Source: an uncultured Chloroflexia bacterium | Lineage (GTDB): Bacteria; Chloroflexota; Limnocylindria; Limnocylindrales; CSP1-4 | Direction: 5' to 3' | Assembly: GCA_963819655.1 (NCBI GenBank) | Contig: CAWFXA010000002.1 | Span: 320,001-384,000 of the forward strand | DNA: 64,000 nt | The notes under the pieces: model-generated | Told to the model about the DNA's origin: nothing | Databases searched by the model: none | What the model saw: only the letters and a program-made list of their open reading frames with translations | Shown here: one piece after another, positions 16,986 through 32,307 of the stretch | Numbering within the stretch: the first letter of the stretch is position 1 | Layout: every line of letters begins with the position of its first letter | Position numbers and translations under genes: made by a program

Positions 16986-17131
16986 CGCTCACCTCCCTCG
17001 CCGGGCTGTCCGTGCGCCGGCGTCTCCGTCGCGGGACCAGATCGCGGACCCGTTTCGCGGCCGTGAACTTCCGGGCGCCAGCCGACCGTCAGGTGCGGTC
17101 GTCGCCACCCATCGCGGCGAGGCCGTCGCCA

Positions 17132-17240: not shown

Positions 17241-17251
17241 TCCTGAGCGGG

Positions 17252-17908: not shown

Positions 17909-18250
17909 TAGTTCCAGTATAGTGGAACGATTACACCACGCTGTACGCGTCCGTGGCCCGGCCCGAGAGTCACCCGCACCTGTGGCCGCGACGTGTCGAT
18001 CACCGCGCTCCAGCCGGTCGACATCACTGAATGCGAGCTCGGCGCCCTACCCGGCGAGGATCTGCTCGCCCTCATCCGCAGCTGGGTCCCCGCGAGCACC
18101 CACGATCTGATCGCGACGAGCGTGCTCCTCCGAGCGCACAAGGCGGCCCAGGCAAGGCTCCCCGGCCACAGCCAGGCATGAGCGGCGAGCTCGTCGCTCG
18201 ACGTCGATGTCGGGCCGGGCACATGCTCGGAGTCCTGCTCCCAGCGCCGC

Positions 18251-21200
18251 TCACCCAGCTGTTCGAGCCACCCGATTGAGGGCAGCGAGCGCCCGTTCGT
18301 CGTCGGCGACCACGGCGACGCTGCCCTTGCGGGTGTCGAGCTCGATGGCCTTGCGGACCGCGGCGATAGCCTCGTCGTGGCGACCTGCGGCCTCCTTGAC
18401 GTCGGCGGCCGCCCGCAGCGTCCAGGCATGGAACGTCAGGAAGTCGGTCGTCTCGAAGTACGCAAGCGCCTCGCTGATGGCTGCGTCGGCCTCTGCGTGC
18501 CGCCCCTCCGCCGCCCTGACTCGGGCGACGGACCCGAGGGCCACCGCCCGGAGCCAGCCGCCGCCCTCAAGACCGCGTGCCGCGGCCGACGCCGCGAGGT
18601 CGCGATCCCCGGCAAGCCAGGCATTGCGGGCCAGGAAACCGGCGAGCATCGCGCTCGGCGCGCCCATCTGGTCCGTCTGCTCGAGGCCGTCCTTCAGTAC
18701 CTCCATCGCGGCGCGCGCATCGCCGGCCACCTGCTCGACGTCGGCCGCCAGCTCGGAGAGGAGCGCACGTGATGCCGCCTGGCCAAGCTCGTCGAGGATC
18801 GCGAGGCACTTGGCCGCTAACTCGCGCGCCTCGTCGAAGCGGCCCAGCCGGGCGACGAGGTGGGCCATCGCGTGCCACATCCAGCTCGCGACGGTCGCGC
18901 TGTCAGGCTCGGCCCGGAGGACCTCCTCGCACCGCCGGATGCCGTCCTCGACGGGCGTCGGGCCGGTGTTGAGGACGGCCGACAACTGAAGGTAGCCCAG
19001 CGCAAGCTCGCGCCGCCGGCCGCCGCGACGCGCGTGTTCGATGGCCCGCATCGCGGCCGCCTCCGCTTCGGCCCCGCGGCCAGCCTCCCAGTGACACGCG
19101 GACAGCAGGTCCCACGCGCGGGCCAGACCGACCTCGTCAGCCGCGTTCTCGAACAGCGCGACCGCCTCGTGGGCATCGGCCTCGGCTCGCTCACGGAGCG
19201 GACCGAGCTCGCTGGCTACCCCCCAGTGCTCGACTTTGGCGTGTGCTTCGAGGCGCCTGTCGCCCGAAGCCCGGGCGCCTTCGACGACATCCTCGAGGAT
19301 GGCGTAGGCGCGCGCCAGCTCACCGGTCTCGCCGAGAGCATCGGCGAGCTCGATGGATAACCACGGACGCTCCGGGTCAAGGAGCGGGAGGAGGGCGACG
19401 GTCCGCTCCAGGAGGTTGACGGCGGCCCGCATGTCGCCTCGCGCGACCGCGCGGTGGGCCGCCGAGCCGAGCCGACTCGCGGCGCGCCCTGCGAGGACGG
19501 CCGAGCGGCCGTCGTCCAGACCGAGCTCGACCCGGTTGCGATGGGCCTGCTCGAAGTGATAGCCGACGATCTCCTCGACCTCCCCCAGCCGATCGCCGGT
19601 GGTCTCCGCCAGCCATTCGGCGAAGCGTTCGTGGAGGGCCGCCCGCTCGGTCTTCGCTACCGAATCGTAGGCGGCGTCACGGATGAGGATGTGGCGGAAG
19701 CGGTACACGCCCTCATCGGCGAGGCGTGGCGACTCCGGCCGGATGAGATCCTTGCGCACCAGCGATGTCAGGCAGCCGGCCACCCGGGGACGCTCGGGCT
19801 CGGGCGAGAGGTGGCTCACCGCTCGGTCCTCGAATACCCGGCCGACGATCGAGGCCCGTTCGGCGACCCCTCGTTCCGTCGGATCGAGCCGGTCGAGGCG
19901 TGCGGCCAGAAGCGCCTGGATGTTCGGCGGGATCGGGATGCGGTCGAGTCCGTCGGCGACCCCCCAGCGCTCCCCGTCCGCCGGCCGGATGAAGCCGCCG
20001 TCGACGAGCATCGCGATGAGCTCCTCGAGGTACAGCGGGTTCCCCTCGGCCGCGTCGCTGATCCGGTTGCGCAAGGAGGCAGGCAGCGCGGCTCCCGGGA
20101 CCAGCTGATCGATCAGGACGGTTGCCGCGGACTCGCCCAGTGGCTCGAGCAGGATGGCCGTGGCGTTCAAGCGGCCGCCGCCCCACATGGGACGATCCTC
20201 GAGCAGTTCCGGACGCGCCGAGGCGATGATCAGGACTGCCGATCCGCGGATGAGATCGGCCAGGTGCTCGATGAGGTCGAGCAGGGTCGGCTCGGCCCAA
20301 TGGATGTCGTCGACGATAAGGACGACCGGTCGATCGATCGCGACCCATTCGACCAGCCGGCGGAGCGCCCAGAAGAGCTCCTCCTGGCGAGCCCGACCGG
20401 GCTCGAGCCCGAGGACCTCGGCCAGCCGGCCAGCGATCAGCCGGTCCTCGGGCGCCTCAGGGAGCAGGGCATCGAGCCGGCCGCGCGCGGCGGCCGCGTC
20501 GTCGGTCTCCTTGATCCCCGCCACGGCCCGGACGATCTCGATGACCGGCCAATAGGTGATGCCCTCGCCGTACGGCAGGCAACGGCCGCGCAGGACCGTG
20601 ACCCCGTCCGGCAGGGCGGCGACGAATTCGCGCACGAGCCGGCTCTTGCCGACCCCGGCGGTGCCGAAGATCGTCAGTAGCTGGGCCGTCCGGACGCCAA
20701 CCGCCCGATCGAACACGCCGCGCAGGACGCCGAGCTCAGCATCGCGGGCGACCATCGGCCCGTCGGGTCGACGCGGCTGGTCATCCGCGCCAGGGCGGAT
20801 CGCGATGAGGCGTGCGACGGGGACCGGCTCGATCCGGCCACGGACGGCGAGTGGATCGAGGACCTCGAGCTCGGCGACCTCGCGGACCAGTCGGGTCGTC
20901 TCCGGCCCGAGCAGGATCTCGTCCGGGGCCGCCGCCTGCTCGAGTCGCGCGGCGACGTTTACGGTGTCGCCGGTGACGAGCGTCGGCAGGTCCGGTCCGA
21001 CACCGGCGACCACCGGACCCGTGCAGATGCCGGTCCGAACCCGTAACTCGCTCCCGCGCTCGGCGTTCAAGGTGACAAGCGCCTCACGCATCGCGACCGC
21101 GGCGCGCGCCGCCCGGATGGCGTCGTCCTCGTGGACGGATGGCACGCCGAAGACGGCCATGATGGCATCGCCGATGAACTTCTCGACGGTCCCGCCATAG

Positions 21201-21433
21201 CGCTCGATGACATCGCGCATCGCGGCGAAGTAGTCGGTCATGACGTGGCGGACGGCCTCGGGATCGAGCCGCTCGCCCATCGCCGTCGATCCGACGACGT
21301 CGGCGAACAGCACCGTGACCGTCTTGCGGACCTCACGCGGACGGGGCTCGTCGACCACCAGGCGGGCGCCGCATTCGAGACAGAACTTCGCCTGCTCCGG
21401 GTTGTGCGCCTCGCAGTTCGGGCATGCCCTCAC
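18251..21433 (-). CDS. Zn-ribbon + class III adenylate/guanylate cyclase + AAA (STAND) + TPR protein
   Basis: CPNC...CLECG, VTVLFADVVGST, KFIGDA, GDTVNVAARL, GTAGVGKSRL, DDIHWA, GNPLY. Confidence 0.9.
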   Translation of the reverse strand: MRACPNCEAHNPEQAKFCLECGARLVVDEPRPREVRKTVTVLFADVVGSTAMGERLDPEAVRHVMTDYFAAMRDVIERYGGTVEKFIGDAIMAVFGVPSVHEDDAIRAARAAVAMREALVTLNAERGSELRVRTGICTGPVVAGVGPDLPTLVTGDTVNVAARLEQAAAPDEILLGPETTRLVREVAELEVLDPLAVRGRIEPVPVARLIAIRPGADDQPRRPDGPMVARDAELGVLRGVFDRAVGVRTAQLLTIFGTAGVGKSRLVREFVAALPDGVTVLRGRCLPYGEGITYWPVIEIVRAVAGIKETDDAAAARGRLDALLPEAPEDRLIAGRLAEVLGLEPGRARQEELFWALRRLVEWVAIDRPVVLIVDDIHWAEPTLLDLIEHLADLIRGSAVLIIASARPELLEDRPMWGGGRLNATAILLEPLGESAATVLIDQLVPGAALPASLRNRISDAAEGNPLYLEELIAMLVDGGFIRPADGERWGVADGLDRIPIPPNIQALLAARLDRLDPTERGVAERASIVGRVFEDRAVSHLSPEPERPRVAGCLTSLVRKDLIRPESPRLADEGVYRFRHILIRDAAYDSVAKTERAALHERFAEWLAETTGDRLGEVEEIVGYHFEQAHRNRVELGLDDGRSAVLAGRAASRLGSAAHRAVARGDMRAAVNLLERTVALLPLLDPERPWLSIELADALGETGELARAYAILEDVVEGARASGDRRLEAHAKVEHWGVASELGPLRERAEADAHEAVALFENAADEVGLARAWDLLSACHWEAGRGAEAEAAAMRAIEHARRGGRRRELALGYLQLSAVLNTGPTPVEDGIRRCEEVLRAEPDSATVASWMWHAMAHLVARLGRFDEARELAAKCLAILDELGQAASRALLSELAADVEQVAGDARAAMEVLKDGLEQTDQMGAPSAMLAGFLARNAWLAGDRDLAASAAARGLEGGGWLRAVALGSVARVRAAEGRHAEADAAISEALAYFETTDFLTFHAWTLRAAADVKEAAGRHDEAIAAVRKAIELDTRKGSVAVVADDERALAALNRVARTAG

Positions 21434-21823
21434 GGGCCGAGTCTAGGCGCGCTGACCGGGCACCGCGCTAGAGGCTTTCATCCCGAGATGTTCGCGTCAG
21501 GGCCTGACGGCCATTGATCTGTCAAAGGAGCTCCCGGCGCAACGTCCCCACCGAGTTGCGAGGAAGCGCGATATGCGCCCGGTAGATCGCCTTATGGCAG
21601 CAGTCAACGACGGTGATCGCGCCGCCTGGGGAGCCTCCTCCGGGTGGTTGTCACGATGAAGAACGGGATCTGCCACGGATTGCTGCCGCCCCACGCATCG
21701 GCCACCCTCGTAGGTGTTCTGGCCGCCGGCGACCGCTCCGAGTCGGCCAATGCCTCGTCGATGTGGACCTCTTCTTCGACCGTGCCGCCCGCGTCCTCGT
21801 CGAGTTCGAACGGATCGTCGCCA

Positions 21824-21888
21824 GACCGCCTGAGCGTTGTGGCCACCCGAGTGGGACCCCGAGCGAAACGGGTGGAGTTTTACGCTCT
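21824..21888 (+). repeat. Module left-end repeat, copy 1
   Basis: GACCGCCTGAGCGTTGTGGCCACCCGAGTGGGACCCCGAGCGAAACGGG (49 bp, identical to 27222-27270) then TG-GAGTTTTACGCTCT. Confidence 0.95.
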
Positions 21889-22462
21889 AGGATTCCTGCT
21901 CGGCCGTGCGCAGTAGGGCCAGGGCGTTCTGGATGCCCTGCTCCAGGACCTCGTCGGCAAGCTTCTGATCGGACAGGGCGCGGGAGACCTGGAGCGTCCC
22001 GACCATCAGGGCGAAGACGCTGAGGGTCCTGACGCGCGCTGATTGGGGATCTTCCGCTGCCAATCGGGCGGCAGCGTCATCGATGATCGCCAGCTGCCCA
22101 TCGGTGTAGGCGCGCTTCACGGCGTCGGACGAGCGGGCGATCTCGTCGAGGAGCGCGGCCGATGGACAGCCGCCCTCGGTGTCGTCGCGGTGCTGAGGCG
22201 ACAGATAGCCGCTAACGATTTCCTCGAGCGACTGCGTGCTGTATCGCTCGCGCTGCTCGCGGAGCTGGTCCGCGACCGTGCTCGCGACGAGATCCTCCTT
22301 CGAGTCGAAGTGGGCGTAGAAGGCGCCGTTGGTCAGCCCGGCGTCGGCCATGAGCGTCGCCACCCCGGAGCCATCGATGCCGTCGCGCTTGAGCCGACGG
22401 CCTGCCGCCTCGATGATCCGCCCCCGCGTCGCCTGCTTGTGCTCTTTCCCGTACCGCGCCAT
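21887..22462 (-). CDS. TetR/AcrR family regulator
   Basis: GIDGSGVATLMADAGLTNGAFYAHFDSKE, HRD..EGGCP. Confidence 0.92.
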   Translation of the reverse strand: MARYGKEHKQATRGRIIEAAGRRLKRDGIDGSGVATLMADAGLTNGAFYAHFDSKEDLVASTVADQLREQRERYSTQSLEEIVSGYLSPQHRDDTEGGCPSAALLDEIARSSDAVKRAYTDGQLAIIDDAAARLAAEDPQSARVRTLSVFALMVGTLQVSRALSDQKLADEVLEQGIQNALALLRTAEQES

Positions 22463-22564
22463 CTGCGACTCCCTCATTGGGAAGGGTTCGTCCTTCCTCT
22501 TGACATCCATTATATGTCATGCGTAATATTACGACCATCAGCCAATTAGCGCAAGGAGTCCACG

Positions 22565-23380
22565 ATGACATCAGCCAAGCCAGTCGCGCTCGTGACGGGC
22601 GCCTCCTCCGGCATCGGGAATGCAGCCGCCCTCGCCCTCGTCACGGCCGGTTTCGAGGTGGTCGGCACGAGCCGGAAGACGTCCGGCGTCGCTCCAGTCG
22701 ACGGCGTCACGTTCCTCGACCTCGACGTGACCAGTGACGAGTCGGTTAGCTCGGCGGTCGGGCGCGTGATCGAGCGGTTCGGGCGGCTCGACGTGCTGGT
22801 CAACAACGCGGGCATCGGGGCAGCCGGGGCCGCCGAAGAAAGCTCCGTCGCCCAGGACCAGCGCGTCTTCGATATCAACTTCTTCGGGCTCGTCCGAATG
22901 ACGAAAGCGGTCCTCCCGCACATGCGCGCGGCCGGAAGGGGTCGGATTATCAGCATCTCCTCGGTGCTCGGGCTCGTCCCCGCTCCGTACATGGCCAGTT
23001 ACGCCGCCACCAAGCACGCGATCGAGGGCTACTCCGAGTCGGTCGACCACGAGGTTCGGGAGCACGGCATCCGCGTGCTTCTCGTCGAGCCCGGCTACAC
23101 GCGGACCGGCTTCGACGCCAACGCCATCCAGCCCGACGCACCGTTGCCGATCTACGCGCTGCAGCGGCACGTCTTCGACGGGGTGTTGGCGCGAGGCATG
23201 GCAGACGGCGATGACCCGGCCATCGTCGCCAAGGCGATCGTCGCGGCGGCGACGGACCCGAAGCCGAAGCTGCGCTACACCGCCGGCCCGGCGGCCGGAC
23301 GCGTCAGCGTCCTGCGCCGCTTCGTTCCCACGCGGGTCTTCGACCGGCAGATCCGGAAGCTCAACCGCCTGCCCGCCTGA
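22565..23380 (+). CDS. Short-chain dehydrogenase/reductase
   Basis: TGASSGIG, NNAG, YAATK. Confidence 0.93.
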   Translation: MTSAKPVALVTGASSGIGNAAALALVTAGFEVVGTSRKTSGVAPVDGVTFLDLDVTSDESVSSAVGRVIERFGRLDVLVNNAGIGAAGAAEESSVAQDQRVFDINFFGLVRMTKAVLPHMRAAGRGRIISISSVLGLVPAPYMASYAATKHAIEGYSESVDHEVREHGIRVLLVEPGYTRTGFDANAIQPDAPLPIYALQRHVFDGVLARGMADGDDPAIVAKAIVAAATDPKPKLRYTAGPAAGRVSVLRRFVPTRVFDRQIRKLNRLPA

Positions 23381-23417
23381 AGCCAATCCTCAATCAGCCA
23401 TACCAAGGAGACCCGTC

Positions 23418-24278
23418 ATGAGCACCATGAGCATCGACCCCGTCATCACGTCCTACGCGATGGCGCCGGCCCTCACCATCACCGCAGGCGACGCGACCTA
23501 CGCCTATCGCGAGCTCGGACCGAAGGGCGGGATCCCCGTGATCCTCTTTGTCCACCTTGCTGCGACCCTCGACAACTGGGACCCGCGCATCGTCGACCCC
23601 ATCGCCAGAGAGCACCATGTCATCGCATTCGACAACCGCGGCGTCGGCGCCTCCACCGGCCAGGTTCCCGACAGCGTCGAAGCGATGGCCGACGACGCCT
23701 ACGCCTTCATCCGCGCGCTCGGCTTCGACGAGGTCGACATCTTCGCCTTCTCCCTCGGCGGCTTCGTCGCCCAGGCTCTCGTGATCAAGCACCCGGATCT
23801 GGTCCGCAAGTTGGTCCTCACCGGGACCGGCCCTGCCGGAGGGAAGGACATCGACAAGGTCGCCGGCATCACCTACTGGGACATGTTGCGCGCGGCCCTG
23901 ACCCGGTCGGACCCGAAGGAGTTCCTGTTCTTCAACCGCAACGCCACCGGCAAGCCCGCCGCCCGCGCCTTCGTCAACCGACTCACGGAGCGCACCGTCG
24001 ACCGGGACGCCGCGATCTCGGTGAAGGCTTTCCAGACCCAGCTCAAGGCGATCAAGAAGTGGGGTCGCTCGGCCCCTGCCGACCTGTCGAAGGTCACCCA
24101 GCCCACCTTGATCGCCAACGGCGACAACGACCGGATGGTGCCCTCCGTGCTATCCGAGGACCTGCACCGCCGCATCCGCGGCTCCGAGCTCGTGATCTAC
24201 CCCGACTCCGGCCACGGCGGCATCTTCCAGTTCCACGACACCTTCGTCCCGGTCGCCGTCGAGTTCCTCGACCGCTGA
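23418..24278 (+). CDS. Alpha/beta hydrolase
   Basis: RBS AAGGAG; FDNRGVGAS, AFSLGG, GDND, DSGHGGIFQ. Confidence 0.88.
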   Translation: MSTMSIDPVITSYAMAPALTITAGDATYAYRELGPKGGIPVILFVHLAATLDNWDPRIVDPIAREHHVIAFDNRGVGASTGQVPDSVEAMADDAYAFIRALGFDEVDIFAFSLGGFVAQALVIKHPDLVRKLVLTGTGPAGGKDIDKVAGITYWDMLRAALTRSDPKEFLFFNRNATGKPAARAFVNRLTERTVDRDAAISVKAFQTQLKAIKKWGRSAPADLSKVTQPTLIANGDNDRMVPSVLSEDLHRRIRGSELVIYPDSGHGGIFQFHDTFVPVAVEFLDR

Positions 24279-24305
24279 CCGCACCCTACGAAGGAAGGCA
24301 AGAAG

Positions 24306-25100
24306 GTGGCTACGACACGTCAAGCGGCGAAGAAGCCCCTCGTCTCATCGATCCTGCTGTGGATGCGGACCGATCAGCCCCGTCAGCAAGGCATGGACTA
24401 CTGGAAGGGCCCGCACTCGAAGATCATCTCCGCGACGCCGGGGATGGAGGAGTACCGCCAGATCCATCTGGCGGAGAACAATCCCGGGCTGTGGCCCGCC
24501 ATCCGCGGCGTCGAAACGGTCATCCCCGCCAACCGCCGGATCGACGGGGTCGCCGAGGTCACGTTCACGTCCGTTCTCTCCCCGCTGCGGGGCCGCAAGC
24601 AGACCGGGCTCGCGTACAAGGATGAGGTGAACGTGTTCCGGCGCACCCTGCTCTACGCGGGGCTACCGAACTCGGCCCGCTGGTACAACGTGGCCGGTCC
24701 CGGTGAGAAGGCGGGAGCGCGAAGCCTGATCTACCTCCGCAGGCGGGAAGGCGTCAAGACCGGTGCGTTCCGGAGGTTTCTCACGGACGAGCTTGTTCCC
24801 GCTCTCGTCAAGACAGGAGCCCTGCGGGAACTCCGAACCCAGGTCTTCATGCCCTGGATCAAGAGACTCTGGGACACCCCGAACGTCGCGCACGACAACC
24901 CCGCTGACCAGCGGTTCCAGGCCTCACTGGTCCTCGGCTTCACCGATACCAACGCCCTGTGGACGTTCTTCCGTGGCGGAGAGGTCGCCTCGCTTTCAAG
25001 CAAGTTGCCCGAGTTCGTTTCCGCCGTCCACGCCTACGAGGTCACCGAAGCGCTGACCTACGTGAAGGACGGCAAGATCCTCCCGCACAATCAGACGTAA
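24306..25100 (+). CDS. EthD-like (dimeric alpha/beta barrel) protein
   Basis: YWKGPHS...PGMEEYRQIH...IDGVAEVTF...DE; co-transcribed with SDR and hydrolase. Confidence 0.6.
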   Translation: MATTRQAAKKPLVSSILLWMRTDQPRQQGMDYWKGPHSKIISATPGMEEYRQIHLAENNPGLWPAIRGVETVIPANRRIDGVAEVTFTSVLSPLRGRKQTGLAYKDEVNVFRRTLLYAGLPNSARWYNVAGPGEKAGARSLIYLRRREGVKTGAFRRFLTDELVPALVKTGALRELRTQVFMPWIKRLWDTPNVAHDNPADQRFQASLVLGFTDTNALWTFFRGGEVASLSSKLPEFVSAVHAYEVTEALTYVKDGKILPHNQT

Positions 25101-25167
25101 CGGCGCGCCCCGGTCCCGAGCTCCGGGCCACGACGCACGGTGCGATCAGGTGGAGTGCCGGTCATCG

Positions 25168-26011
25168 TCAGGCCTCCGCCACGTCGAGCGAGACGAAGCG
25201 CTCGCGGTTGAAGTCGATGTCGGCCTGCAGGTCGGCGACCTTCTGCTCGGTGGAAGCGATCGAGTCGGCGCCGGCGATGAACCGGCGTCGCGGCGGCTCC
25301 TCGCTGGCGATCGTCACGAGCGCCTGGGCGAGCTTGGCCGGGTCGCCTGACTGGCGGCCATTCTGGGAGGTCCACCAGTCGATCTGGGCAGCGCGTCGCT
25401 CGGCGTAGTCGTCGATCGACAGTTGGGCGAAGTTCGTCGACTCAGGCGTCAGCAGCTCGGTCCGGAAGAAGCCGGGATTGACGATCGTGGTGTGGATGCC
25501 GAACGGCTGCGACCTCCGGCCGCAACGACTCCATCCAGCCCTCGATCCCGAACTTGGACGCCGCGTAGGCCGTCCCGAACTCGAAGCCGGAAAGCCCCGC
25601 GCTCGAGGAGATCGTGATGACGTGACCGGATCGCTGCCGGCGCATCACGGGCAGGACGGCGCGGGTGACGTTCATCGGGCCGATGAGCGTCGTCGCGAGC
25701 TGGCGCTCCATCTGCTCCGGCGTCAGCTCCTCGAAGAAGCCGGCGTTGAAGTTGCCGGCGTTGTTGACGAGGACATCGATCCGCCCGAATCGCTCGACCG
25801 CGGCCTGGACCGCGGCCAAGGCGTCGGCGGGGCTGGTCACGTCGAGCCTCACGGCGAGCAGGTCGGCAGGGTCGCCGACCGCCTTCGTCACCGCCTCAGG
25901 GTTGCGGCCCGTCGCGACCACGGAATTGCTGGCGGCCAGCGCGGCCTTGGCGATGTCGACGCCCATGCCGCGCCCGGCACCCGTGATGAACCAGACCTTC
26001 CTTTCGGTCAT
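25168..26011 (-). CDS. Short-chain dehydrogenase/reductase (frameshift near 25505)
   Basis: WFITGAGRGMG, NNAG, YAASKF; C-terminal GDPAKLAQAL...RRFIAGAD lies in a shifted frame. Confidence 0.85.
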
Positions 26012-26149
26012 CGGAAATCTCCTTTACGTGGTGGTTTGACCTTCTGCGGGCCATCCAACCACCCGCCATCCCGGTCGGAAAGGCACGCGTTATCGGGGTA
26101 TTGCTGATGCCTGCCTACCAGCGCACGAGGGGCGTAGGGTGGGCGTGAC

Positions 26150-27032
26150 GTGAGCAGCGCCGACGAGATCCGCGAGTTCCTGACGACGCGCCGGGCGAAG
26201 CTGTCCCCCGAGCGCGCCAGCGTGCCGAGGTATGGCCGCAAGCGGCGAGTGCCCGGCCTGCGGCGCGAAGAGGTCGCCCTCCGCGCCGGGATCAGCGTCG
26301 AGTGGTACACGCGCCTGGAGCGCGGCGTCGCGCGGGGCGTCTCCGATGAAGTCCTCGACGCCATCGGCAGCGCGCTCCAGCTCGACGAGGCCGAGCGCGC
26401 CCACCTCGCGGATCTCGTGCGCACCGCGAACGCGGAGCGGCCGCCACGACGAACCTCGACCCCGCAGGGCGTGCGTCCGAGCCTCGCCCGGCATCGTCGA
26501 TGTGATGGGCCCGATCCCGTCCTGCGTGACGAACGGTCGGCTCGACGTCCTCTACGCGAACGATCTCGCGGAGGCGCTCTTCTCGGATGTCTTCCGTGAC
26601 CCCGTCCGCCCGCCCAACTTCGCCCGCTTCGTGTTCCTCGATCCACGAGCGAGGACGTTCTACCGCGACTGGGAGAAAGCTGCCAATGACACCGTCGCAG
26701 TGCTGCGCGCGGCGGCCGGCCGGGACCCGTACGACCGCAGCCTGTCCGACCTGGTCGGGCAGCTCTCGACGCGGAGCGACGAGTTCCGGGTCCGCTGGGC
26801 GGCGCACGATGTCGCGTTCCATCGCACGGCCACCAAGCACATGCACCATCCGCTCGTGGGCGACCTGACCCTCGCCTTCGAGATGCTCGAGCTCCCAGCC
26901 GATCCGGGGCTGTCGGTGCTCATCTACTCCGCCGAGCCCGGCTCACCGTCTGAAGAGGCCATGCGCGAGCTGGCGCGCTGGAGCGAGACGCGGACCAAGC
27001 TCTCGGCAGCTCGGGCCGGATCCGAGACCTGA
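26150..27032 (+). CDS. XRE-family HTH regulator with MmyB-like ligand domain (frameshift near 26490)
   Basis: RRVPGLRREEVA...WYTRLERG, then PNFARFVFLDP...FRVRWAAHDV...HPLVGDLTL. Confidence 0.88.
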
Positions 27033-27063
27033 CCCAGCACGCCGGGCCATCTCGATGCCCGCA

Positions 27064-27180
27064 GAGTTTTACGCTCTAGGAGCGATGTGGCGGCCAAGGC
27101 GTGTGGGCAATGCCTCGGAATAGACCTACAAACCAAAGCCGACGGTCGAGCCGCGCTCAGCAGGTATCATCGCGGTCCGC
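27064..27180 (+). repeat. Module right end: palindromic site plus spacer plus -10 box (TATCAT 27165-27170)
   Basis: GAGTTTTACGCTCTAGGAGCGATGTGGC...TAGACCTACAAACCAAAGCCGACGGTC...GGTATCAT, homologous to 31291-31409. Confidence 0.85.
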
Positions 27181-27220
27181 GCGCCTGTAGCTCAGGGGAT
27201 AGAGCGTCGCCTCCGGAGCC
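27181..27220 (+). pseudogene. 5' half of tRNA-Arg(CCG) (displaced fragment, att-like)
   Basis: GCGCCTGTAGCTCAGGGGATAGAGCGTCG-CCTCCGGAGCC versus tRNA 31410-31450 (1 substitution, 1 deletion); stops 3 nt after the anticodon loop. Confidence 0.9.
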
Positions 27221-27221
27221 T

Positions 27222-27286
27222 GACCGCCTGAGCGTTGTGGCCACCCGAGTGGGACCCCGAGCGAAACGGGCTGAGTCTTACGCTCT
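27222..27286 (+). repeat. Module left-end repeat, copy 2
   Basis: 49 bp identical to 21824-21872, then CT-GAGTCTTACGCTCT. Confidence 0.95.
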
Positions 27287-27328
27287 GTGCGGAAGACCAC
27301 GGTGCAAGGAGTGGGCTCGCGCTCGGCT

Positions 27329-29614
27329 TCAAGGCGCTCGTCCTCGGTCTGCGAGCGAGTAGAGCCGGATGACTCCATCGCGTCCGGTCGTGTATGCGTC
27401 GCCATTGGGCCCGATCACAGCCAGCTCGAGGCCGCGTCCTGACCACGATGAGATGAGGTCACCAGTGGGGGCGAACAGGTGCAGCCGATCGGGCCCGTCC
27501 GTCGCGTACAGTTCGCCATTCGGCCCGGAAGCAAGCAGCACCGGCTCGCGCAGAAGACCCTCTCCGATCTGTCGGACGATCGTGCCGTCCGGGGCGATCA
27601 CCGTGATCCTCCAGGGTGCCCCGCGACCGCCACTGGCGAAATAGACCGTTCCGTCGGGACCCACGACCACGTTGTTCGTGCACCGATCCCTGACGTCCGC
27701 GCCTCCCGCCAATGTCCGAACGTAGTTGCCTGATTGTTCGAAAACCTGGATCCGGCACGTGGGGTCGTCAACCACATAGACGAGCCCGTCCGGGCCAACA
27801 CTGATGCCGAAGGGACTGACGAACTGGCCGGGCCCTGACCCGAAGGTTCCCCATGACCCGATCATCTCTCGGTCGGCATCGAAGTGCACGACCCGCTGGT
27901 GCTCCGAATCGGCAATGAAGAAGCCGCCATCCGGGAGGAAGGCAACTGCACCCCAGCCATCCCGGTCGGGCTGGACGAGGGCGAGGGCGGCATCACCGGT
28001 CGGCTGCCATGTTTCGACGACTCCTCCGTCACGACCGACGATCACGAACCGGGCACGTGTGGGGTCGGCGATCCACAGCCGCCCGTCTGGTGCGCCGTTC
28101 AGGAAGAACGGCCCCTCGATCCCAAGATCTCGGGCCGTGCGGGCCCACACCTCAACGAGTGCAACGGTCGAGGTGATGATGTGCGCCGACGACGATGGGC
28201 GCTCGGCCGTCGCACTGGAAGCGACCCCTGCGGTGGGCGACGGACTGCTGGCACGAGCTTCGGCGGCGGTCAGCGCGTACACACTCCCATCCTGTGTTCC
28301 AACGATCAGGTGCGCGCCGGCGACTGCGGGCGAGAAGGGGATGCCGTCGAGTAGGAAGGTCCCGAGGACGTCGCCGGTGGCCGCCTCGAGGGCCTCGATC
28401 CCCCCGTGCGAGGCGAGGTACAGCACTCCACCAGCCTTGGTCGGCGATGAGCCGACCTGAACGCCGAGGCTTCGTGTCCATATCTCGGCACCGTCGTCGG
28501 CCCGGAGCGCGACCACGTCGCCGTCGACCGCGGCTGCGTAGACGGTCCCCGTCTCGGGGTCGACGACCGGAGCGACGACTGTCTGTCCGTTTGGCCGCCG
28601 GTGACGCCATATCCCACGGCCGGATTCGAGATCGACCGCGTAGAGAACGCCGCGATTCCCTTCGAGATCAAGGCCTGCGAGCAGGACCTTCTCGCCAGCG
28701 ATGACGGGTGTATCGGTGAAGACCGGCGTCGCAAAGCGCCACAACTCGCGTGCGGTTGGGGAGTCGAAGGCCACGGCGATCCCGACATCGGTCGGGACGA
28801 CGAGGATCGAACCCTGGACCGCGATCGACCGCGTCGAGGGCCCCGGCAGGTCTTCCTGCCAGACGACCTCGTGCGTTTCGAGATCGATGGCCAGAACCTT
28901 GCCGGTCGCGCCCGGGACGGGTCGTCCACGGGACTGTGCCGAAGAGGTCGAGACGTACAGCCGGTCGCCGACGATCGCCGGACTACCGGCAGCGTAGCCA
29001 TCGAGCGGTATTTGCCAGGCGACATGGCCAGTCCGTCGATCCACGGCGACGAGATCCCGATCCTCCGTCCCGACGATCACCAACTCACCGGCCACAGAAG
29101 GCGACGACCAGGCAACGTTCAGATCGGACGACCACAGCTGGACGTGGCGTCGGAGGTCGAACGCTCGGAACTGGCCATCGATCGCTCCCACGTAGGCGAC
29201 GCCGTCCACGATCGCCGCCGACGATACGATCGGACCGGAGAGCGTCGTCTGGAAGTCGATGGTCATGGCCCCACCGGGTCCGGGCCCCGTTACCACGCCG
29301 GTCCTTGCCGCGTCACCGCGGAACGTCGAGCTGTCCGACAGGGGCTCCGATCTCCGGAGGAGCTGGGCGCCCACCGCGGCGATGCCGGCCAAGAGCGACA
29401 TCAGGAGGAGGGCGGTCATCGCCAGCCGGACGGGTCGCGGCAATGCGACGACCTTCGCCATGATCCGGCTTTCGAGCGGGGCGGGCTGCTGCGGGGTGAG
29501 GCGGACCGCGGCCGCGATGGAGTCGCGCAGATCTGCAGGTGCCAGCGTCGCCTGGGGCAGTGCCAGAGATCGGTTCAGCAGCTCCCGTGTCAACGGCGGA
29601 AGGTTCCGGCTCAT
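27329..29614 (-). CDS. Single-TM protein with PQQ-like and NHL beta-propellers (putative anti-sigma factor)
   Basis: Start overlaps the ECF stop; TM segment; FRGDAARTG, repeated SSP/W motifs; WGTFGSGPGQFVSPFGISVGPDG. Confidence 0.8.
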   Translation of the reverse strand: MSRNLPPLTRELLNRSLALPQATLAPADLRDSIAAAVRLTPQQPAPLESRIMAKVVALPRPVRLAMTALLLMSLLAGIAAVGAQLLRRSEPLSDSSTFRGDAARTGVVTGPGPGGAMTIDFQTTLSGPIVSSAAIVDGVAYVGAIDGQFRAFDLRRHVQLWSSDLNVAWSSPSVAGELVIVGTEDRDLVAVDRRTGHVAWQIPLDGYAAGSPAIVGDRLYVSTSSAQSRGRPVPGATGKVLAIDLETHEVVWQEDLPGPSTRSIAVQGSILVVPTDVGIAVAFDSPTARELWRFATPVFTDTPVIAGEKVLLAGLDLEGNRGVLYAVDLESGRGIWRHRRPNGQTVVAPVVDPETGTVYAAAVDGDVVALRADDGAEIWTRSLGVQVGSSPTKAGGVLYLASHGGIEALEAATGDVLGTFLLDGIPFSPAVAGAHLIVGTQDGSVYALTAAEARASSPSPTAGVASSATAERPSSSAHIITSTVALVEVWARTARDLGIEGPFFLNGAPDGRLWIADPTRARFVIVGRDGGVVETWQPTGDAALALVQPDRDGWGAVAFLPDGGFFIADSEHQRVVHFDADREMIGSWGTFGSGPGQFVSPFGISVGPDGLVYVVDDPTCRIQVFEQSGNYVRTLAGGADVRDRCTNNVVVGPDGTVYFASGGRGAPWRITVIAPDGTIVRQIGEGLLREPVLLASGPNGELYATDGPDRLHLFAPTGDLISSWSGRGLELAVIGPNGDAYTTGRDGVIRLYSLADRGRAP

Positions 29615-30183
29615 TCCGACACCTCCCGGAGCGCCTTCGCGAGGGCTCGGCGCGCACTGAAGAGACGCCACATGACCGTCCCCGAAGGGACGCGAAGGAG
29701 ATTCGCGATCTCGGCGACCGGTCGGCCTTCGCCGTGATGCAAGGCGAGCACGGTTCGCTGGTCGCCGGACAACCGGCCGAATGCCTGGCGGACGATGTCC
29801 TCGTCGGCCAGCGCTTCGAGAGGCGACTGGCTTGTCGGATGGTCGGCCGGAAGCGAGAGCTCCTCGATCGGGATCTCCCGGACCCGGGCCTTTCGGCGCC
29901 GGAGCAGCATCCGGCACTCGTTCACGACGATCCGATCGAGCCACGCATCGAAGCGCGCGACATCACGGAGTCGAGGGAGTTCTCGCCAGGCTGCCAAGAA
30001 CGCCTCCTGGCATGCGTCGCGGGCGTCCCATTCAGTTCGCAGGATGGCCAGAGCCGTGCGATAGGCTCGGTCGAGCCGAGCGTCGATCAACCGTTCGAAT
30101 GCCTGCACATCGCCGGCGCGGGCCAACTCGACGAGCGAGGCGTCGCTCGTCGAGCCGACCGAGGTGCTCGCGTGTGCCGTCAT
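29611..30183 (-). CDS. ECF RNA polymerase sigma factor
   Basis: DASLVELARAGDVQAF, DACQEAFLAAW, WLDRIVVN, EIANLLRVPSGTVMWRL. Confidence 0.92.
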   Translation of the reverse strand: MTAHASTSVGSTSDASLVELARAGDVQAFERLIDARLDRAYRTALAILRTEWDARDACQEAFLAAWRELPRLRDVARFDAWLDRIVVNECRMLLRRRKARVREIPIEELSLPADHPTSQSPLEALADEDIVRQAFGRLSGDQRTVLALHHGEGRPVAEIANLLRVPSGTVMWRLFSARRALAKALREVSE

Positions 30184-30244
30184 CGGGTTGCAGTGTGCCC
30201 TCGACGGACGGGTCAGCCGGCGAACAATGGGCAGAGAGCGGAGG

Positions 30245-31105
30245 TCATGGCAACTCCAACAGTCCGGCGACGGCAGGCCATGTGATCTCTGCGACCTCCG
30301 CCTGTCCGCGCACGTTCAGGTGGTTCCGATCGCTGGAGAAATCCTCGGGGCGTTCAATGTACGCGGCGCGAGCTCCGTCGTCCGTCCGGCAATTGGGCAC
30401 CGTGGCGCACACCCGGGCCTGCTCCGTCTCATATTTCTCGATGATGGATGTCAGGGTGTCGGAAGGGTCAGGGTCGCACAGCATCCACGAAGGGGGTCGT
30501 CCGAGCTGTCCGACCACCAGGATCCGTGAGTCGGGTGAGGCCGTGGTTACGACCTGCAAGGCGTCTGCGAGGGCGACACCGAACTCGGGTACGTGCGTGC
30601 GATCGGTCCCGTCGCAGCGGATGTCGCTGTCGATCGTTTGGACTACGACGAGTGCCGGGGTGGGAACAGTTTCGAGAGCGGATCGCGCCTGCCCCGCCAG
30701 CGAAGACGCGGGCGCACCACCTTGCGCAGTGTTGGCAACATGGCCCTCGGTCTCCGGACGGACCGCGACGAGCCGCCGGTAGATGCTGTTGACCTCAGGC
30801 GATGTGCCAGTCGCCCACGAGTTTTCGAGCGCAACCCGACCAGGACGGCTCGGATCGGAGTTCTCACCAGTCAAGCCGGAGTGCCCGATCGCTATGACAC
30901 CGACCGGCTTGCCGGGGTTGGCCGCGGTCGCGGTCGATGTGGCGGCCGGGCCGGCCGCGGCCGATGTGGTAGCCGGGCCGGTCGCGGCCGATGTGGTGGC
31001 CGGGCCGGTCGCGGCCTGGTCTCCGATGTCTGCACTGCGGCAGCCACTGACCGCCAACGCCAAGGCGATGATGGCGGCCACGGTGCCAGCTGATCTTGTG
31101 TTCAT
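30245..31105 (-). CDS. SGNH/GDSL-like hydrolase lipoprotein
   Basis: Lipobox VSGC; AIGHSGLTG, NSWATG, DRNHLNVRGQ. Confidence 0.7.
   Translation of the reverse strand: MNTRSAGTVAAIIALALAVSGCRSADIGDQAATGPATTSAATGPATTSAAAGPAATSTATAANPGKPVGVIAIGHSGLTGENSDPSRPGRVALENSWATGTSPEVNSIYRRLVAVRPETEGHVANTAQGGAPASSLAGQARSALETVPTPALVVVQTIDSDIRCDGTDRTHVPEFGVALADALQVVTTASPDSRILVVGQLGRPPSWMLCDPDPSDTLTSIIEKYETEQARVCATVPNCRTDDGARAAYIERPEDFSSDRNHLNVRGQAEVAEITWPAVAGLLELP
30926..31016. repeat. 27-bp tandem repeat (about 3.3 copies) encoding an AATGPATTS linker
   Basis: GGTCGCGGYCGATGTGGYRGCCGGGCC repeated in frame within the lipoprotein gene. Confidence 0.85.
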
Positions 31106-31290
31106 GATGTGCTCCGGGGTAGTCCGGATGTGCATCCTTTGCCTCCTGATCGGGTCTCTGCATTCGCAGAGTTCCTTCAGAAGTCCAGATGCGAGGGAGC
31201 ACCGATCCATTTGGCGCTCCTCTGTAAGAAACACGTGCGCCGAGTTGTCGCCGTACGTGCTCCCTCCGCTCGGACCGTTCGGCCGCCGGC

Positions 31291-31409
31291 GAGTTTTACG
31301 CTCTACGAGCGTTGTGGCCGCGGAATCCGTGCTCGCCGCAGCGGCAAGGTAGACCTTCGAACCACAGGCCGAAGGTCCATCCAAGCTCGGCGGGTATGAT
31401 CAGCGCCTC
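31291..31409 (+). repeat. Module right end: 29-bp palindromic site plus spacer plus tRNA promoter (-10 TATGAT 31395-31400)
   Basis: GAGTTTTACGCTC-TAC-GAGCGTTGTGGCC (31291-31319); GACCTTCG/CGAAGGTC inverted repeat 31352-31377. Confidence 0.85.
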
Positions 31410-31485
31410 GCGCCTGTAGCTCAGTGGATAGAGCGTCGGCCTCCGGAGCCGAAGGTCGCAGGTTCGAATCCTGTCGGGCGCGCCA
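31410..31485 (+). tRNA. tRNA-Arg (CCG)
   Basis: GCGCCTGTAGCTCAGTGGATAGAGCGTCGGCCTCCGGAGCCGAAGGTCGCAGGTTCGAATCCTGTCGGGCGCGCCA: 76 nt, CT-CCG-GA loop, CCA end. Confidence 0.97.
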
Positions 31486-31576
31486 GTTCAACCTTTTCGG
31501 GCAGAGCCAGCGCCAATCCGTGCGCGTAGGCCGCCTGAGTCAGCCGGACACCCACGATCTCGGGTGCCAGCGACCG

Positions 31577-32239
31577 TCAGTGGTTCGTCGGCTGCGTGCC
31601 GGAGAGGATGTCTTTGGGTGGCGTGGCCAGACCGAATACCTGATCCAGGAGCGTGGTGACGCACCAATCCACCCAGTCGTCGTGCGGCCAGCCGTACGTC
31701 CCGACGAGGAAGTGGTAGGCGTCCTCGCCAACGTAGAAGAGCAGCAGGTGCGCTGCTCTCTCCGGGTCGAGCCCATCGCGCAGCGGTGCCTTCTTCCGAA
31801 GGATCTCGAGGATGACCCGGTAGCCATCGGCCCGCCAGGCCTCGGATTCCGCCATGACCCTGGCCAGATCGGGATCGTCACTCGCCCGCGCCGCGAGATT
31901 GAGCGGGATCACCCTTGGCATGATCGAGCCGACACCGGTCACCAGGTGGCGAACCGCCTCGGCGATCCCCGAGGCATCGGTCATCGCCAGGTACCACGGC
32001 TGCTCCTCAGGAGGACGCGGGTCATCCCGGCCCATCACGGCGAAGTCGATGGCCCGCGCGAGCAGGGCGGGCTTCGTGTGGAACACGAAGTAGACCGTCT
32101 GGACGGCGACGCCGGCAGCCTCGGCGACCTGCGCCATCGTCGTGGCGGCATAGCCCTGGGTCGAGAACAGGCGGTGCGATGCCTCGACGATCTTCCAGTG
32201 GGTGGCGCGGGACCGCTCCCGTCGGGTCAGGCTGGCCAT
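31577..32239 (-). CDS. TetR/AcrR family regulator
   Basis: GYAATTMAQVAEAAGVAVQTVYFVFHTK. Confidence 0.92.
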   Translation of the reverse strand: MASLTRRERSRATHWKIVEASHRLFSTQGYAATTMAQVAEAAGVAVQTVYFVFHTKPALLARAIDFAVMGRDDPRPPEEQPWYLAMTDASGIAEAVRHLVTGVGSIMPRVIPLNLAARASDDPDLARVMAESEAWRADGYRVILEILRKKAPLRDGLDPERAAHLLLFYVGEDAYHFLVGTYGWPHDDWVDWCVTTLLDQVFGLATPPKDILSGTQPTNH

Positions 32240-32249
32240 GCGGAACCTC

Positions 32250-32307
32250 TTGACATCCGTCGCGAAGGCGATACTATCCGACCTCTCACTAGAGTGCACA
32301 CTAGTGA
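32250..32307 (+). promoter_or_regulatory. Promoter TTGACA-16-TACTAT plus near-palindromic TetR operator
   Basis: TTGACA 32250-32255, TACTAT 32272-32277, TCACTAGAGTGCACACTAGTGA 32286-32307. Confidence 0.7.

Follow-up and report, generated by a model that had tools for sequence, protein, structure and literature searches.

The cis-mobilizable elements (CIMEs) of streptococcal integrative elements are flanked by att sites, have no recombination genes and accrete in tandem with an autonomous element. For islands in tRNA genes, the figures given in the Islander survey are 159 of 3919 islands with a 5′ tDNA fragment, 125 tandems with at least two members and an attP length of about 250 bp (PMC4383910). 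Tycheposons of Prochlorococcus, as their description has it, are defined via integrases and replication genes (10.1101/2020.12.28.424599).

We analyzed a locus in a window of 64,000 nucleotides (the whole stretch of DNA) from an uncultured soil bacterium and found that integrase-less cassettes are lined up there in tandem, 5′ of a tRNA-Arg(CCG) gene. We consider it rather likely that these are small integrative cassettes in the tRNA gene and that two short motifs, L and R, are parts of their attP bound by an Xer-like integrase. Judged from sequence, L and R are most likely docking sites for such an integrase that is missing from this genome.

Cassettes beside tRNA-Arg(CCG)

The original prediction described L and R as abutting at right ends and as standing in the order R-30 bp-L at left ends, and we found that the coordinates bear out both the motifs and the arrangements. 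L (GAGTTTTACGCTCT) has exact copies at 21875, 27064 and 31291, a copy with one mismatch at 27273 and a copy with two mismatches at 17132; R (GAGCGTTGTGGCC) has exact copies at 21832, 27230 and 31307 and copies with two mismatches each at 27080 and 17149. At right ends, L is followed after 3 or 4 nt by R (17132-17161, 27064-27092 and 31291-31319), and at left ends R is followed after 30 nt by L (21832-21888 and 27230-27286). Across the 3.49-Mb genome, this locus is the sole home of the pair. With up to two mismatches, L has 5 matches in the window as compared to 0.03 expected (at least 5 in 0 of 100 shuffles), and a whole-genome scan finds just two poor matches outside the array, with two mismatches each. 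R by itself, at up to two mismatches in the window, stays within chance (7 matches as compared to 3.48 expected; at least 7 in 7 of 100 shuffles), and its exact sequence has no copies in the whole genome besides the three of the array. The same scan contradicts the possibility, raised with the original prediction, that the motifs occur genome-wide before ordinary genes. The pentamer GAGCG/CGCTC is present 7 times in the 230-bp junction as compared to a genome mean of 1.49, and 0.09% of scanning windows reach 7. All boxes have (TA)GAGCG(T) in common, which is also present in the tRNA's own ATAGAGCGTCGGCC beside the anticodon stem; this box within the tRNA is the one that R and the inverted L resemble.

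The organizing feature of the locus, the tRNA-Arg(CCG) gene plus a displaced copy of its 5′ half, had been overlooked in the original prediction. The features of the array are:

17132-17250, plus strand: RE0, remnant of a third right end (L variant 17132-17145, R variant 17149-17161)
17252-21822, minus strand: segment between RE0 and left end 1 (Pfam)
17252-17908, minus strand: TetR regulator (Pfam)
17908-18429, minus strand: 173-aa ORF in the segment between RE0 and left end 1
18251-21433, minus strand: adenylate cyclase/AAA/TPR protein (Pfam)
21823-21889, plus strand: left end 1, P′-arm-like (AGACCGCCT, R 21832-21844, internal GAGCGAAAC box, L 21875-21888)
21890-27063, mixed strands: cargo 1 (Pfam)
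21887-22510, minus strand: TetR, cargo 1 (Pfam)
22565-23380, plus strand: short-chain dehydrogenase, cargo 1 (Pfam)
23211-24278, plus strand: ORF of an alpha/beta hydrolase, cargo 1 (Pfam)
24306-25100, plus strand: unknown 264-aa protein, cargo 1
25442-26011, minus strand: truncated short-chain dehydrogenase, cargo 1 (Pfam)
26232-27032, plus strand: MmyB-like regulator, cargo 1 (Pfam)
27064-27180, plus strand: right end 1, P-arm-like (L 27064-27077, R variant 27080-27092)
27181-27220, plus strand: displaced 5′ half of tRNA-Arg(CCG), 40 nt (39 of 41 aligned positions as in the intact gene, blastn)
27221-27287, plus strand: left end 2 (TGACCGCCT, R 27230-27242, GAGCGAAAC box, L variant 27273-27286)
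27288-31290, minus strand: cargo 2 (Pfam)
27329-29944, minus strand: ORF of a PQQ/NHL beta-propeller protein, cargo 2 (Pfam)
29611-30183, minus strand: ECF sigma factor, cargo 2 (Pfam)
30245-31384, minus strand: 379-aa ORF with a weak GDSL-like match, cargo 2 (Pfam)
31291-31409, plus strand: right end 2 (L 31291-31304, R 31307-31319)
31410-31485, plus strand: intact tRNA-Arg(CCG), putative integration target, attB side (ARAGORN; Rfam tRNA 72 bits)

The displaced half has the same orientation as the intact gene, carries one substitution and one deletion, ends 3 nt into the stem past the anticodon loop and is directly followed by the 66-nt left end. The two window copies of the left-end repeat are 94% identical over 69 nt, and left end 1 is 98.5% identical to the family consensus. 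Both right ends have a tRNA promoter-like region, with TATCAT at 27165-27170 in right end 1 (77% identical to 31291-31450) and TATGAT at 31395-31400 in right end 2. Each junction is an attP-like module of ~230 bp that runs L, R, tRNA promoter region, tRNA 5′ half, 9 nt, R, GAGCGAAAC box, L. As in tRNA islands, an intact tRNA and a same-orientation fragment (31410-31485 and 27181-27220) act as bounds. Such islands also restore the tRNA by means of an attP a few hundred bp long, to which the conserved ~230-bp module with its promoter region and 5′ half corresponds; the tRNA gene restored by the module would presumably be functional. Cassette 1 has no such fragment, the one expected upstream of left end 1 (21823) having been lost. 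RE0 continues after its R variant with tRNA-upstream-like sequence, shares 80% identity over 89 nt with the right end at 31291 and has no tRNA fragment after it. In the segment 17252-21822, blastn finds neither a tRNA nor a left-end remnant, and there is no tRNA 5′ half at the expected place; one metagenome contig links 17234 to 31393, which is weak evidence bearing on RE0.

Pfam scans found no recombinase in cargo 1, in the segment 17252-21822 or in cargo 2, and the portion of contig C2 covered by the window has no match to PF00589 or PF00239. The integrase gene that tRNA islands carry within them is absent from the window and present in 4 loci of related islands. A complete 2.4-kb cassette in a genome of the same genus (G315) is ~91% identical to window positions 21897-23404 plus 24233-25109, and by comparison the hydrolase segment of cargo 1 is an addition in the window. 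The ECF sigma factor plus beta-propeller of cargo 2 is the commonest cargo type among related arrays.

Recurrence of the ~230-bp module across genera

With the left end as marker, we found the same architecture in 48 of 401 genomes of the family, which represent 18 of its 49 genera, and related arrays have up to 4 tRNA 5′ halves. When displaced halves were found first, within the genus, a left end followed in 6 of 6. Mean column identity among 33 left ends is 86%, most columns reach at least 90%, and conservation falls off immediately past ...ACGCTCTAC. L is present in 22 of 29 right ends, mainly at –117 to –122, and R abuts L in just 9 of the 29, which suggests that R at right ends is dispensable. 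In one related contig (G012:C11), the right flank matches at 98% and the gap from the tRNA to the conserved left flank is less than 1 kb, as in an empty site, compared to ~23.5 kb in the window. Units range from 1 to 7.6 kb, their cargo is diverse, and PIN toxin-antitoxin cassettes are common in related arrays. Cargo segments are shared by different genera at 80-99% identity in differing array contexts, whereas syntenic flanks inside the genus are merely 71-79% identical. We found no recombinase in 111 loci around junctions and saw no circular or empty-site molecule in metagenome contigs, a contig-level comparison with no usable joint.

These features are consistent with site-specific recombination in or beside the anticodon loop as the way in which the cassettes got into tRNA-Arg(CCG). 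Unlike most tRNA islands, they lie on the 5′ side of the tRNA, and each cassette therefore has a 5′ half and a tRNA promoter region of its own. L and R would be pieces of a ~230-bp attP-type sequence present on every cassette and split upon integration, where the P arm would become the right end (first L, followed by R or by an L in inverted orientation at about –61, and last the promoter) and the P′ arm the left end (9 nt, R, GAGCGAAAC box, L). The (TA)GAGCG(T) that they share suggests that the L/R boxes are additional recombinase binding sites.

The position of L at the borders of cargo also bears on whether L is a second crossover site, so that cargo is swapped, captured or lost at L copies or at the L-R palindrome and the tRNA site is the anchor. 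Direct L repeats lie on either side of every cargo, in dozens of cassettes similarity ends no more than a few nucleotides from L on each side, near-identical arms surround unrelated cargos, and in the L-R palindrome the tRNA-like GAGCGT half-site is present twice, in opposite orientations. However, boundaries would be equally sharp if they marked the outermost sites at which proteins bind an attP, and all cargos are separated by the junction module with its tRNA half, which could not be created by recombination at L alone. In addition, 0 of 41 intervals from a left end to the next tRNA half is an empty unit (two 123-nt cases are right ends matched by pattern). We regard crossover at L as unlikely.

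A candidate integrase and the role of L and R

If L and R are instead parts of an attP, the recombinase would be a 330-aa Xer-like tyrosine integrase, as in autonomous relatives. In one such integrase, ArgInt (330 aa; L208:12534-13526, minus strand), the catalytic domain is the sole match over threshold (PF00589, E 4.8e-31); there is a weak SAM-like N-terminal match and no match to an arm-binding domain. ArgInt and its orthologues (92%, 90% and 74%) lie divergently upstream of tRNA-Arg(CCG) in 4 of 4 loci, at a distance of 125-127 bp in the three loci measured, and two L motifs are present in the spacer, at –95 and –43, in all 4; just these 4 loci were found, in a scan limited by its pattern. 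In ArgInt's integrase family, 36 of 40 loci have a divergent tRNA whose 5′ end is 46-210 bp away from the integrase start, with 7 tRNA species represented. In one genome (G426), an ArgInt-bearing island lies beside the tRNA, behind an integrase-less cassette, and in two metagenome contigs a truncated tRNA half with a left end is fused to an N-terminal remnant of ArgInt. These arrangements point to an ArgInt-type Xer-like integrase as the probable recombinase of the cassettes. The original prediction had proposed, as the first of two alternatives, integrase sites flanking attP, in the order L R-att-R L in the circle, and this fits the anatomy: the att core is the tRNA-Arg(CCG) 5′ half, L and R are in both arms of the ~230-bp module at every cassette junction in many genomes, and two L motifs lie in the stretch from the tRNA to the start codon of the cognate integrase. 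We observed how the array is built, that it recurs and is conserved, that genera share cargo and that integrase, tRNA and L are linked; that the integrase binds L and R, where the crossover lies and that cassettes are mobilized in trans, we infer.

In the window's genome there is no ArgInt orthologue (tblastn gives just the Xer pair, at 28% and 26% identity), and 25 of the 48 left-end-bearing genomes (MAGs, 53-97% complete) have no member of ArgInt's family at E ≤ 1e-30; several left-end-bearing genomes have two PF00589 matches and no more. Because the integrase is absent from these genomes, many cassettes may be inert relics. The two or three cassettes of the window would be movable solely by an enzyme in trans.

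L and R could also be regulatory operators that are carried passively with the cassettes, for example in integrase autoregulation or tRNA promoter control, with no role in recombination. L is in the short integrase-tRNA spacer in all 4 integrase-bearing loci, the first L in G426 is ~30 nt from the integrase start codon, and L-R is a short palindrome of the type bound by dimeric regulators. However, L and R are over 90% identical at left ends, which are remote from integrase genes and in cassettes that have none, and in this genome the motifs are confined to the array. Regulatory and recombination roles are mutually compatible, and a purely regulatory role appears distinctly unlikely.

The original prediction also likened the left end, R-30 nt-L, to an attC hairpin. 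As an attC-type single-strand hairpin, it would be recombined in the fashion of integron cassettes. The 6-bp box, 5/6-nt internal loop and 7-bp box can form and are the minimum-energy fold of copy 1, 91% of cells are paired across 33 copies, and the cassettes are small and without recombinase. However, the fold is not clearly better than that of shuffled sequences (z-scores of –1.67 in copy 1 and –0.17 in copy 2), and in the 33 copies we found no excess of covariation over column shuffles, which equalled the covariation level in 198 of 500 and the pairing level in 163 of 500. The two variable pairs are unpaired in 11 of 33 and 8 of 33 copies and the 'loop' is at least 90% conserved in sequence, which does not fit an integron attC conserved in structure over sequence. 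There is no counterpart hairpin at right ends. We found no IntI-type integrase in the 111 junction loci, and ArgInt scores 64.6 bits, under the 265-bit cut-off of the integron-integrase model TIGR02249. Likeness to attC is not borne out, and we consider this role very improbable.

A comparison of the L-R palindrome with dif fares no better. As a dif-like Xer site, it would make the cassettes Xer-dependent modules of the IMEX or pdif type; its length is 28-29 bp, its inner part is an inverted repeat, and its outer arms are asymmetric. The integrase assigned to the cassettes is also Xer-like, and many cassette-bearing genomes have the XerC/XerD pair alone. However, the lineage has a dif-like site of its own, TTCCGATAA-N6-TTATGTC, which bears no relation to L-R; 35 of 41 genomes have it as a single copy, compared to 0 for the reversed control. 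In this genome it is TTCCGATAAGGTGAGTTATGTC at C3:558487, on another contig than the array. A site of the Xer type would be expected to resemble the host's dif, with XerC arm, 6-bp spacer and XerD arm, and L-R has no resemblance to it. Nor did we find the array at a replication terminus, the place of a chromosomal dif: it lies at C2:337-351 kb, ~120 kb from dnaA (C2:469295), and GC skew is too weak for placing the terminus. The abutting arrangement is confined to the 9 of 29 right ends noted above, and what is duplicated as the core is the tRNA half rather than L-R. We regard a dif-like role as extremely improbable.

Comparison with described systems

Beyond the reading of L and R as attP parts, we tentatively raise the possibility that soil Limnocylindrales have a tRNA-anchored, integron-like cassette system, in which an integrase-less pool with 230-bp attPs is shuffled between genera by a rare Xer-like integrase acting in trans. 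The pool would consist of ECF sigma/anti-sigma pairs, PIN toxin-antitoxin pairs and TetR-plus-enzyme sets, the integrase would bind repeats of its own core half-site (L and R) rather than use an arm-binding domain, and the L-R palindrome may double as a secondary crossover site for cargo exchange. If true, this would be a concrete, testable gene-exchange route in an abundant, uncultured soil lineage, and integron-style cassette build-up could be based on a minimal Xer-like enzyme and a tRNA attachment site of the ordinary kind. The repeated core-like boxes would provide a simple means of studying how directional, attP-type recombination is attained by a two-domain tyrosine recombinase.

Like the 5′-fragment subset of Islander-type tRNA islands, as the survey presents it, the locus has an intact tDNA and a same-orientation fragment, a fragment inside an attP of ~250 bp and tandem arrays; the identity block also stops just past the anticodon loop, which would fit an anticodon-centered crossover site. 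In contrast to these islands, units are 1-7.6 kb and without integrase, a single attP type of over 90% identity accompanies unrelated cargos in 18 genera, and the integrase is a 330-aa Xer-like protein, divergent from the tRNA and with no arm-binding domain match. Since the window's units carry no integrase, they would not pass the integrase filter of Islander, and integrase-less units may be widely overlooked since island finders that demand an integrase filter them out.

As in CIMEs, att-flanked units without recombination genes are in tandem with an autonomous element (G426), whose att sites they have, L-bearing arms being common to both unit types. In contrast to CIMEs, integrase-less units far outnumber autonomous ones, cargo is varied and exchanged, and no conjugation module was seen. 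The arrays resemble integrons in their small recombinase-less cassettes that each end in a conserved recombination sequence, their likely insertion beside one fixed site, their PIN toxin-antitoxin cassettes and their Xer-related recombinase, but they differ in a ~230-bp double-strand-type attP with a tRNA half, conserved in sequence and not in structure, in cassettes with their own regulators and in an integrase that is not IntI and is missing from most arrays. Like tycheposons as described, these are cargo elements at tRNA genes with partial tRNAs between successive integrations and degraded remnants in islands (10.1101/2020.12.28.424599); unlike them as so described, the units have no integrase or replication genes, and the host phylum and integrase family are different.

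L and R motifs at a tRNA-Arg(CCG) array

At up to two mismatches, we found five copies of L in the window where 0.03 would be expected by chance; R by itself at the same threshold is within chance expectation. When we scanned the whole assembly (3.49 Mb, with the window at C2:320001-384000), exact copies of R and every good copy of L were confined to this locus, and the octamer TAGAGCGT/ACGCTCTA formed no cluster elsewhere in the genome. A genome-wide spread of the motifs, which would have refuted the original prediction, is thus not seen, and the two arrangements described there hold, L-R at 17132, 27064 and 31291 and R-30 nt-L at 21832 and 27230. The sequence GAGCG/CGCTC is present seven times in the 230-bp junction as compared to a genome mean of 1.49. 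The L/R feature is real and non-random.

Two tRNA features of the locus had been missed in the original prediction, an intact tRNA-Arg(CCG) gene and a copy of its 5' half.

Features of the array in the window (L and R from the motif scan, the intact tRNA gene from ARAGORN)
17132, L, two mismatches
17149, R, two mismatches
21832, R, exact
21875, L, exact
27064, L, exact
27080, R, two mismatches
27181-27220, 40-nt copy of the tRNA-Arg(CCG) 5' half, between the second L-R and the second R-30 nt-L
27230, R, exact
27273, L, one mismatch
31291, L, exact
31307, R, exact
31410-31485, tRNA-Arg(CCG), starting 119 nt downstream of the last L-R start
Cargo 1: TetR, two short-chain dehydrogenases (one truncated), hydrolase, MmyB-like regulator, unknown protein
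Cargo 2: ECF sigma factor, beta-propeller protein, one further ORF

The 40-nt copy extends through the anticodon loop and three further bases of the stem and matches the intact gene at 39 of 41 aligned positions. With the arrangement of L and R, these two tRNA features lead us to read a junction as L-R, promoter, tRNA half, R-L. It opens with L and R, which are followed by a tRNA promoter-like region of about 90 nt that includes a TATCAT/TATGAT box. The 5' half of the tRNA comes next, then TGACCGCCT and R, and after these a GAGCGAAAC-containing stretch and a final L. We call the part before the tRNA half the right end of one cassette and the part behind it the left end of the next. The tRNA fragment is absent at the first left end (21823) and at RE0, the remnant of a third right end (17132-17250), which are 4.6 kb apart; the segment between them encodes a 1060-aa protein with a zinc ribbon, adenylate/guanylate cyclase, AAA ATPase and TPR repeats (18251-21433, minus strand). 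The intact tRNA-Arg(CCG) carries ATAGAGCGTCGGCC immediately 5' of the anticodon loop. Judged by sequence, this stretch has variants in both R (GAGCGTWGTGGCC) and inverted L (GTAGAGCGTAAAAC).

The cargos between the junctions contain no recombinase, the tyrosine recombinases of this genome are located outside the array, and a search of the genome for serine recombinases gave no match. An Rfam scan of 16500-32000 returned tRNA only.

Several smaller features were seen in and around the array. In cargo 1, the short-chain dehydrogenase genes, which point in opposite directions and of which the second is truncated, form a 61-nt inverted repeat (22754-22814/25753-25813, 80% complementary), and a 379-aa ORF of cargo 2 contains three tandem copies of a 27-nt unit (30925-31016, 87-92% identical). 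Relatives keep the 90 nt 3' of the tRNA (31486-31576), although this stretch is not part of the TetR ORF at 31577-32299. A frame ending at 31488 continues in relatives; the assembly may carry a frameshift or a wrongly placed stop here. The sequence TTTCTGTCAA(G/A)T has four genome copies (window 10366-10390, C2:1124326, C3:893689 and C3:893882); the window copy lies just 5' of a MarR gene and may be an operator.

Conservation of the ends and sharing of cargo

In a relative (G012, contig C11), the site is empty: less than 1 kb separates the tRNA from the conserved left flank as compared to about 23.5 kb in the window, and the right flank is 98% identical. The same 66-nt left end is found behind all six displaced 5' halves first found in the genus. 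Across the family, the left end is present in 48 of 401 genomes (18 of 49 genera), and arrays contain up to four tRNA halves. Between a left end and the tRNA half that follows it lie about 1 to 7.6 kb, the median being near 3 kb (39 intervals kept after removal of two false matches); none of these intervals is an empty, L-only unit. Exact junction matches in named collections comprise 22 stretches, all from Chloroflexota/Ca. Limnocylindrales MAGs, and 59 metagenome contigs. Phage and plasmid records searched with the junction gave tRNA-like matches only, and the junction pattern had no matches in viral contigs.

Alignment of 33 distinct left ends gave a mean column identity of 86%, with most columns at 90% or more, and similarity falls away immediately past ...ACGCTCTAC. 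For the right ends, we counted 29 junctions that each lie behind a cargo. L is present in 22 of these, mostly at -117 to -122 from the tRNA, and inverted L (TAGAGCGTAAAAC) is present at about -61 in 15. The 29-bp L-R palindrome described for right ends in the original prediction does occur, but as one of two variants; R abuts L in only 9 of 29. By our reading of the single junctions, right ends with abutting R mostly have no inverted L, so that each right end has L and one oppositely oriented GAGCGT box.

The left end had also been likened to an attC hairpin. The fold exists, but it is not better than shuffled sequence (z of -1.67 and -0.17 for copies 1 and 2). Over 33 copies, pairing is 91%, a level reached by 163 of 500 column shuffles, and covariation is matched by 198 of 500; the two variable pairs are unpaired in 11 and 8 of the copies. 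The supposed loop is conserved in sequence and pairing and covariation are no higher than in shuffles, which is the opposite of attC. An alternative two-hairpin model across the left ends was no better than the first fold. We also considered the hairpin as a terminator of read-through from the displaced promoter and dropped this idea because a simple terminator scan does not call it.

A dif-sized site, the other comparison drawn for these motifs, does not hold either, as the dif-like site of this lineage lies elsewhere. A canonical dif-like site, TTCCGATAA-N6-TTATGTC, is present once per genome in 35 of 41 genomes from two families of the order (reversed control, 0). In the window's genome, it is single-copy at C3:558487-558508 (TTCCGATAAGGTGAGTTATGTC), and the array lies about 120 kb from dnaA (C2:469295); GC skew is too weak in this genome to place the terminus.

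Cargo segments recur across genera at 80-99% identity, both in other genomes and at other positions in an array. Genera g25 and g8, for example, share 621 bp at 98.9%, and g8 and g36 share 2550 bp at 84%; syntenic flanks inside the window's genus are just 71-79% identical. The first 3.2 kb of window cargo 1 correspond to an entire cassette of another genome (G315) at 91%, and the hydrolase segment is additional in the window. Recurrent cargo includes ECF sigma factors (21 loci), PIN toxins (13 and 8 loci), beta-propeller proteins (9), TetR (7 loci) and ABC transporter parts (7 and 6 loci). Unrelated cargos share identical arms with boundaries exactly at L, and these boundaries keep alive a second proposal of the original prediction, that L serves as a recombination site for cargo exchange. 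Neither excision nor circles found support in contigs from four soil or rhizosphere runs: joints of 27211 to 31457 belong to other tRNA genes and were rejected as excision products, and a 17234-to-31393 joint is a single, weak instance.

Integrases on the 5' side of tRNA genes

To look for a recombinase, we located PF00589 matches in 15 array-bearing genomes; none adjoins an array save, in G367, a degraded fragment on the 3' side of the tRNA; we rejected this fragment as the array recombinase because it belongs with ordinary 3' islands like the tRNA-Gln one in the window's genome. Clustered ORFs from 111 junction loci (877 kb), with representatives compared to Pfam and PHROGs, gave no recombinase. 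One candidate large element (L072) proved to be a rearranged chromosome segment with IS. Several cassette-bearing genomes have only the conserved Xer pair, a tally that includes unpublished genomes (G257, G250, G196, G140 and G409).

When we scanned the window's genome for other displaced tRNA halves, we found a second 5'-side island, at tRNA-Val(GAC), that pointed to an integrase family.

Integrase-related features
C3:494406-498576 (= L161:2406-6577), integrase-less island on the 5' side of tRNA-Val(GAC)
L161:6061-6501 (-), last gene of that island, divergent from the tRNA, N-terminal remnant of a tyrosine recombinase
L208:12534-13526 (-), ArgInt, 330-aa tyrosine integrase of G426 adjoining tRNA-Arg(CCG)

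The Val island has a 40-nt 5' half (97.5% identical) 4.1 kb upstream of the intact gene and also carries CHRD and DUF4332/HHH proteins. Its left-end type is rare (4 of 401 genomes), and an arm motif noted there was dropped because it was not found in two related Val loci. Full-length relatives of the remnant are 315-332 aa, and 138 of the 401 genomes have a member of this integrase family (a tally including unpublished G140 and G250); none of the examples named here depends on the unpublished genomes. In 36 of 40 loci, the integrase start codon is 46-210 bp from the 5' end of a divergent tRNA; the other four, three of them short loci, have no tRNA gene in the sequence covered. Target tRNAs were Val-GAC (15), Arg-TCG (5), Ala-GGC (5), Met-CAT (4), Thr-CGT (3), Arg-CCG (3) and Lys-CTT (1), with Val over-represented because the 40 loci were picked by likeness to the Val type.

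The three members at tRNA-Arg(CCG), in G426, G084 and G066, are 90-92% identical to each other, and all three genomes have the left end. A fourth ArgInt-type member (L214) is 74% identical. In all four ArgInt loci, L is present at -95 and -43 in the spacer between integrase and tRNA. Along the G426 contig, a tRNA half with its left end is followed by an integrase-less cassette of 5.6 kb, then by a right end, a tRNA half and a left end. Next come a 27.7-kb island whose metabolic cargo includes P450, IS110, RACo and MTHFR, then the integrase, two copies of L and the tRNA. Just 3' of this tRNA, a 367-aa ORF (L208:13663-14766, minus strand) resembles by eye the C-terminal part of a large serine recombinase.

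ArgInt is Xer-like. An XerC-like protein, XerA and XerD are among its best solved relatives. It scores far below cut-off against XerC, XerD and XerA models, and domain searches gave no match suggesting a separate arm-binding domain. In two metagenome contigs, what remains of the N-terminal part of ArgInt is fused to a left end with a truncated tRNA half. A search of the window's assembly found no ArgInt, and 25 of the 48 left-end genomes have no integrase-family member at E <= 1e-30, a count affected by MAG incompleteness.

Proposed integration at the anticodon loop and known tRNA islands

We propose that ArgInt would recombine the attP of a cassette with tRNA-Arg(CCG). In the Arg array, identity extends three bases into the anticodon-stem 3' strand, and in the Val island one base; both end points fit a crossover across the anticodon loop. 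An element that integrates on the 5' side must bring a promoter region and a tRNA 5' half, as is the case for the right ends. If each new unit enters at the intact gene, the youngest would be the one adjoining the tRNA, as in G426. L and R, as copies of the tRNA half-site, may recruit additional integrase protomers to both arms. Units without an integrase would need the enzyme in trans, or may be relics.

The window's genome also has islands on the 3' side of tRNA genes. At tRNA-Gln(CTG) (C3:3292-3366), a frameshifted integrase lies beside the 3' end, and the tRNA 3' part has three exact 40-nt copies at C1:9058, 25326 and 31510. Together, C3:1-3400 and C1:9058-31549 look like a classical 3'-side tandem island array, and contigs C3 and C1 may therefore adjoin each other. 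The 3' end of tRNA-Thr(CGT) is occupied by a further classical island of about 17 kb (C2:721870-738753), which encodes tyrosine recombinases of 395 and 324 aa.

Crossover centred on the anticodon loop is an established mechanism, and CIME-like units are a known kind of element. Our literature search turned up no account of this system; cases on the 5' side or without an integrase may be listed in the supplements of the Islander and tycheposon papers. Tandem accretion with remnants is already known at tRNA islands (10.1101/2020.12.28.424599). In the Islander survey, which required an integrase, islands with a 5' tRNA fragment are known but rare (159 of 3919), and anticodon-centred attachment is a common class (PMC4383910).
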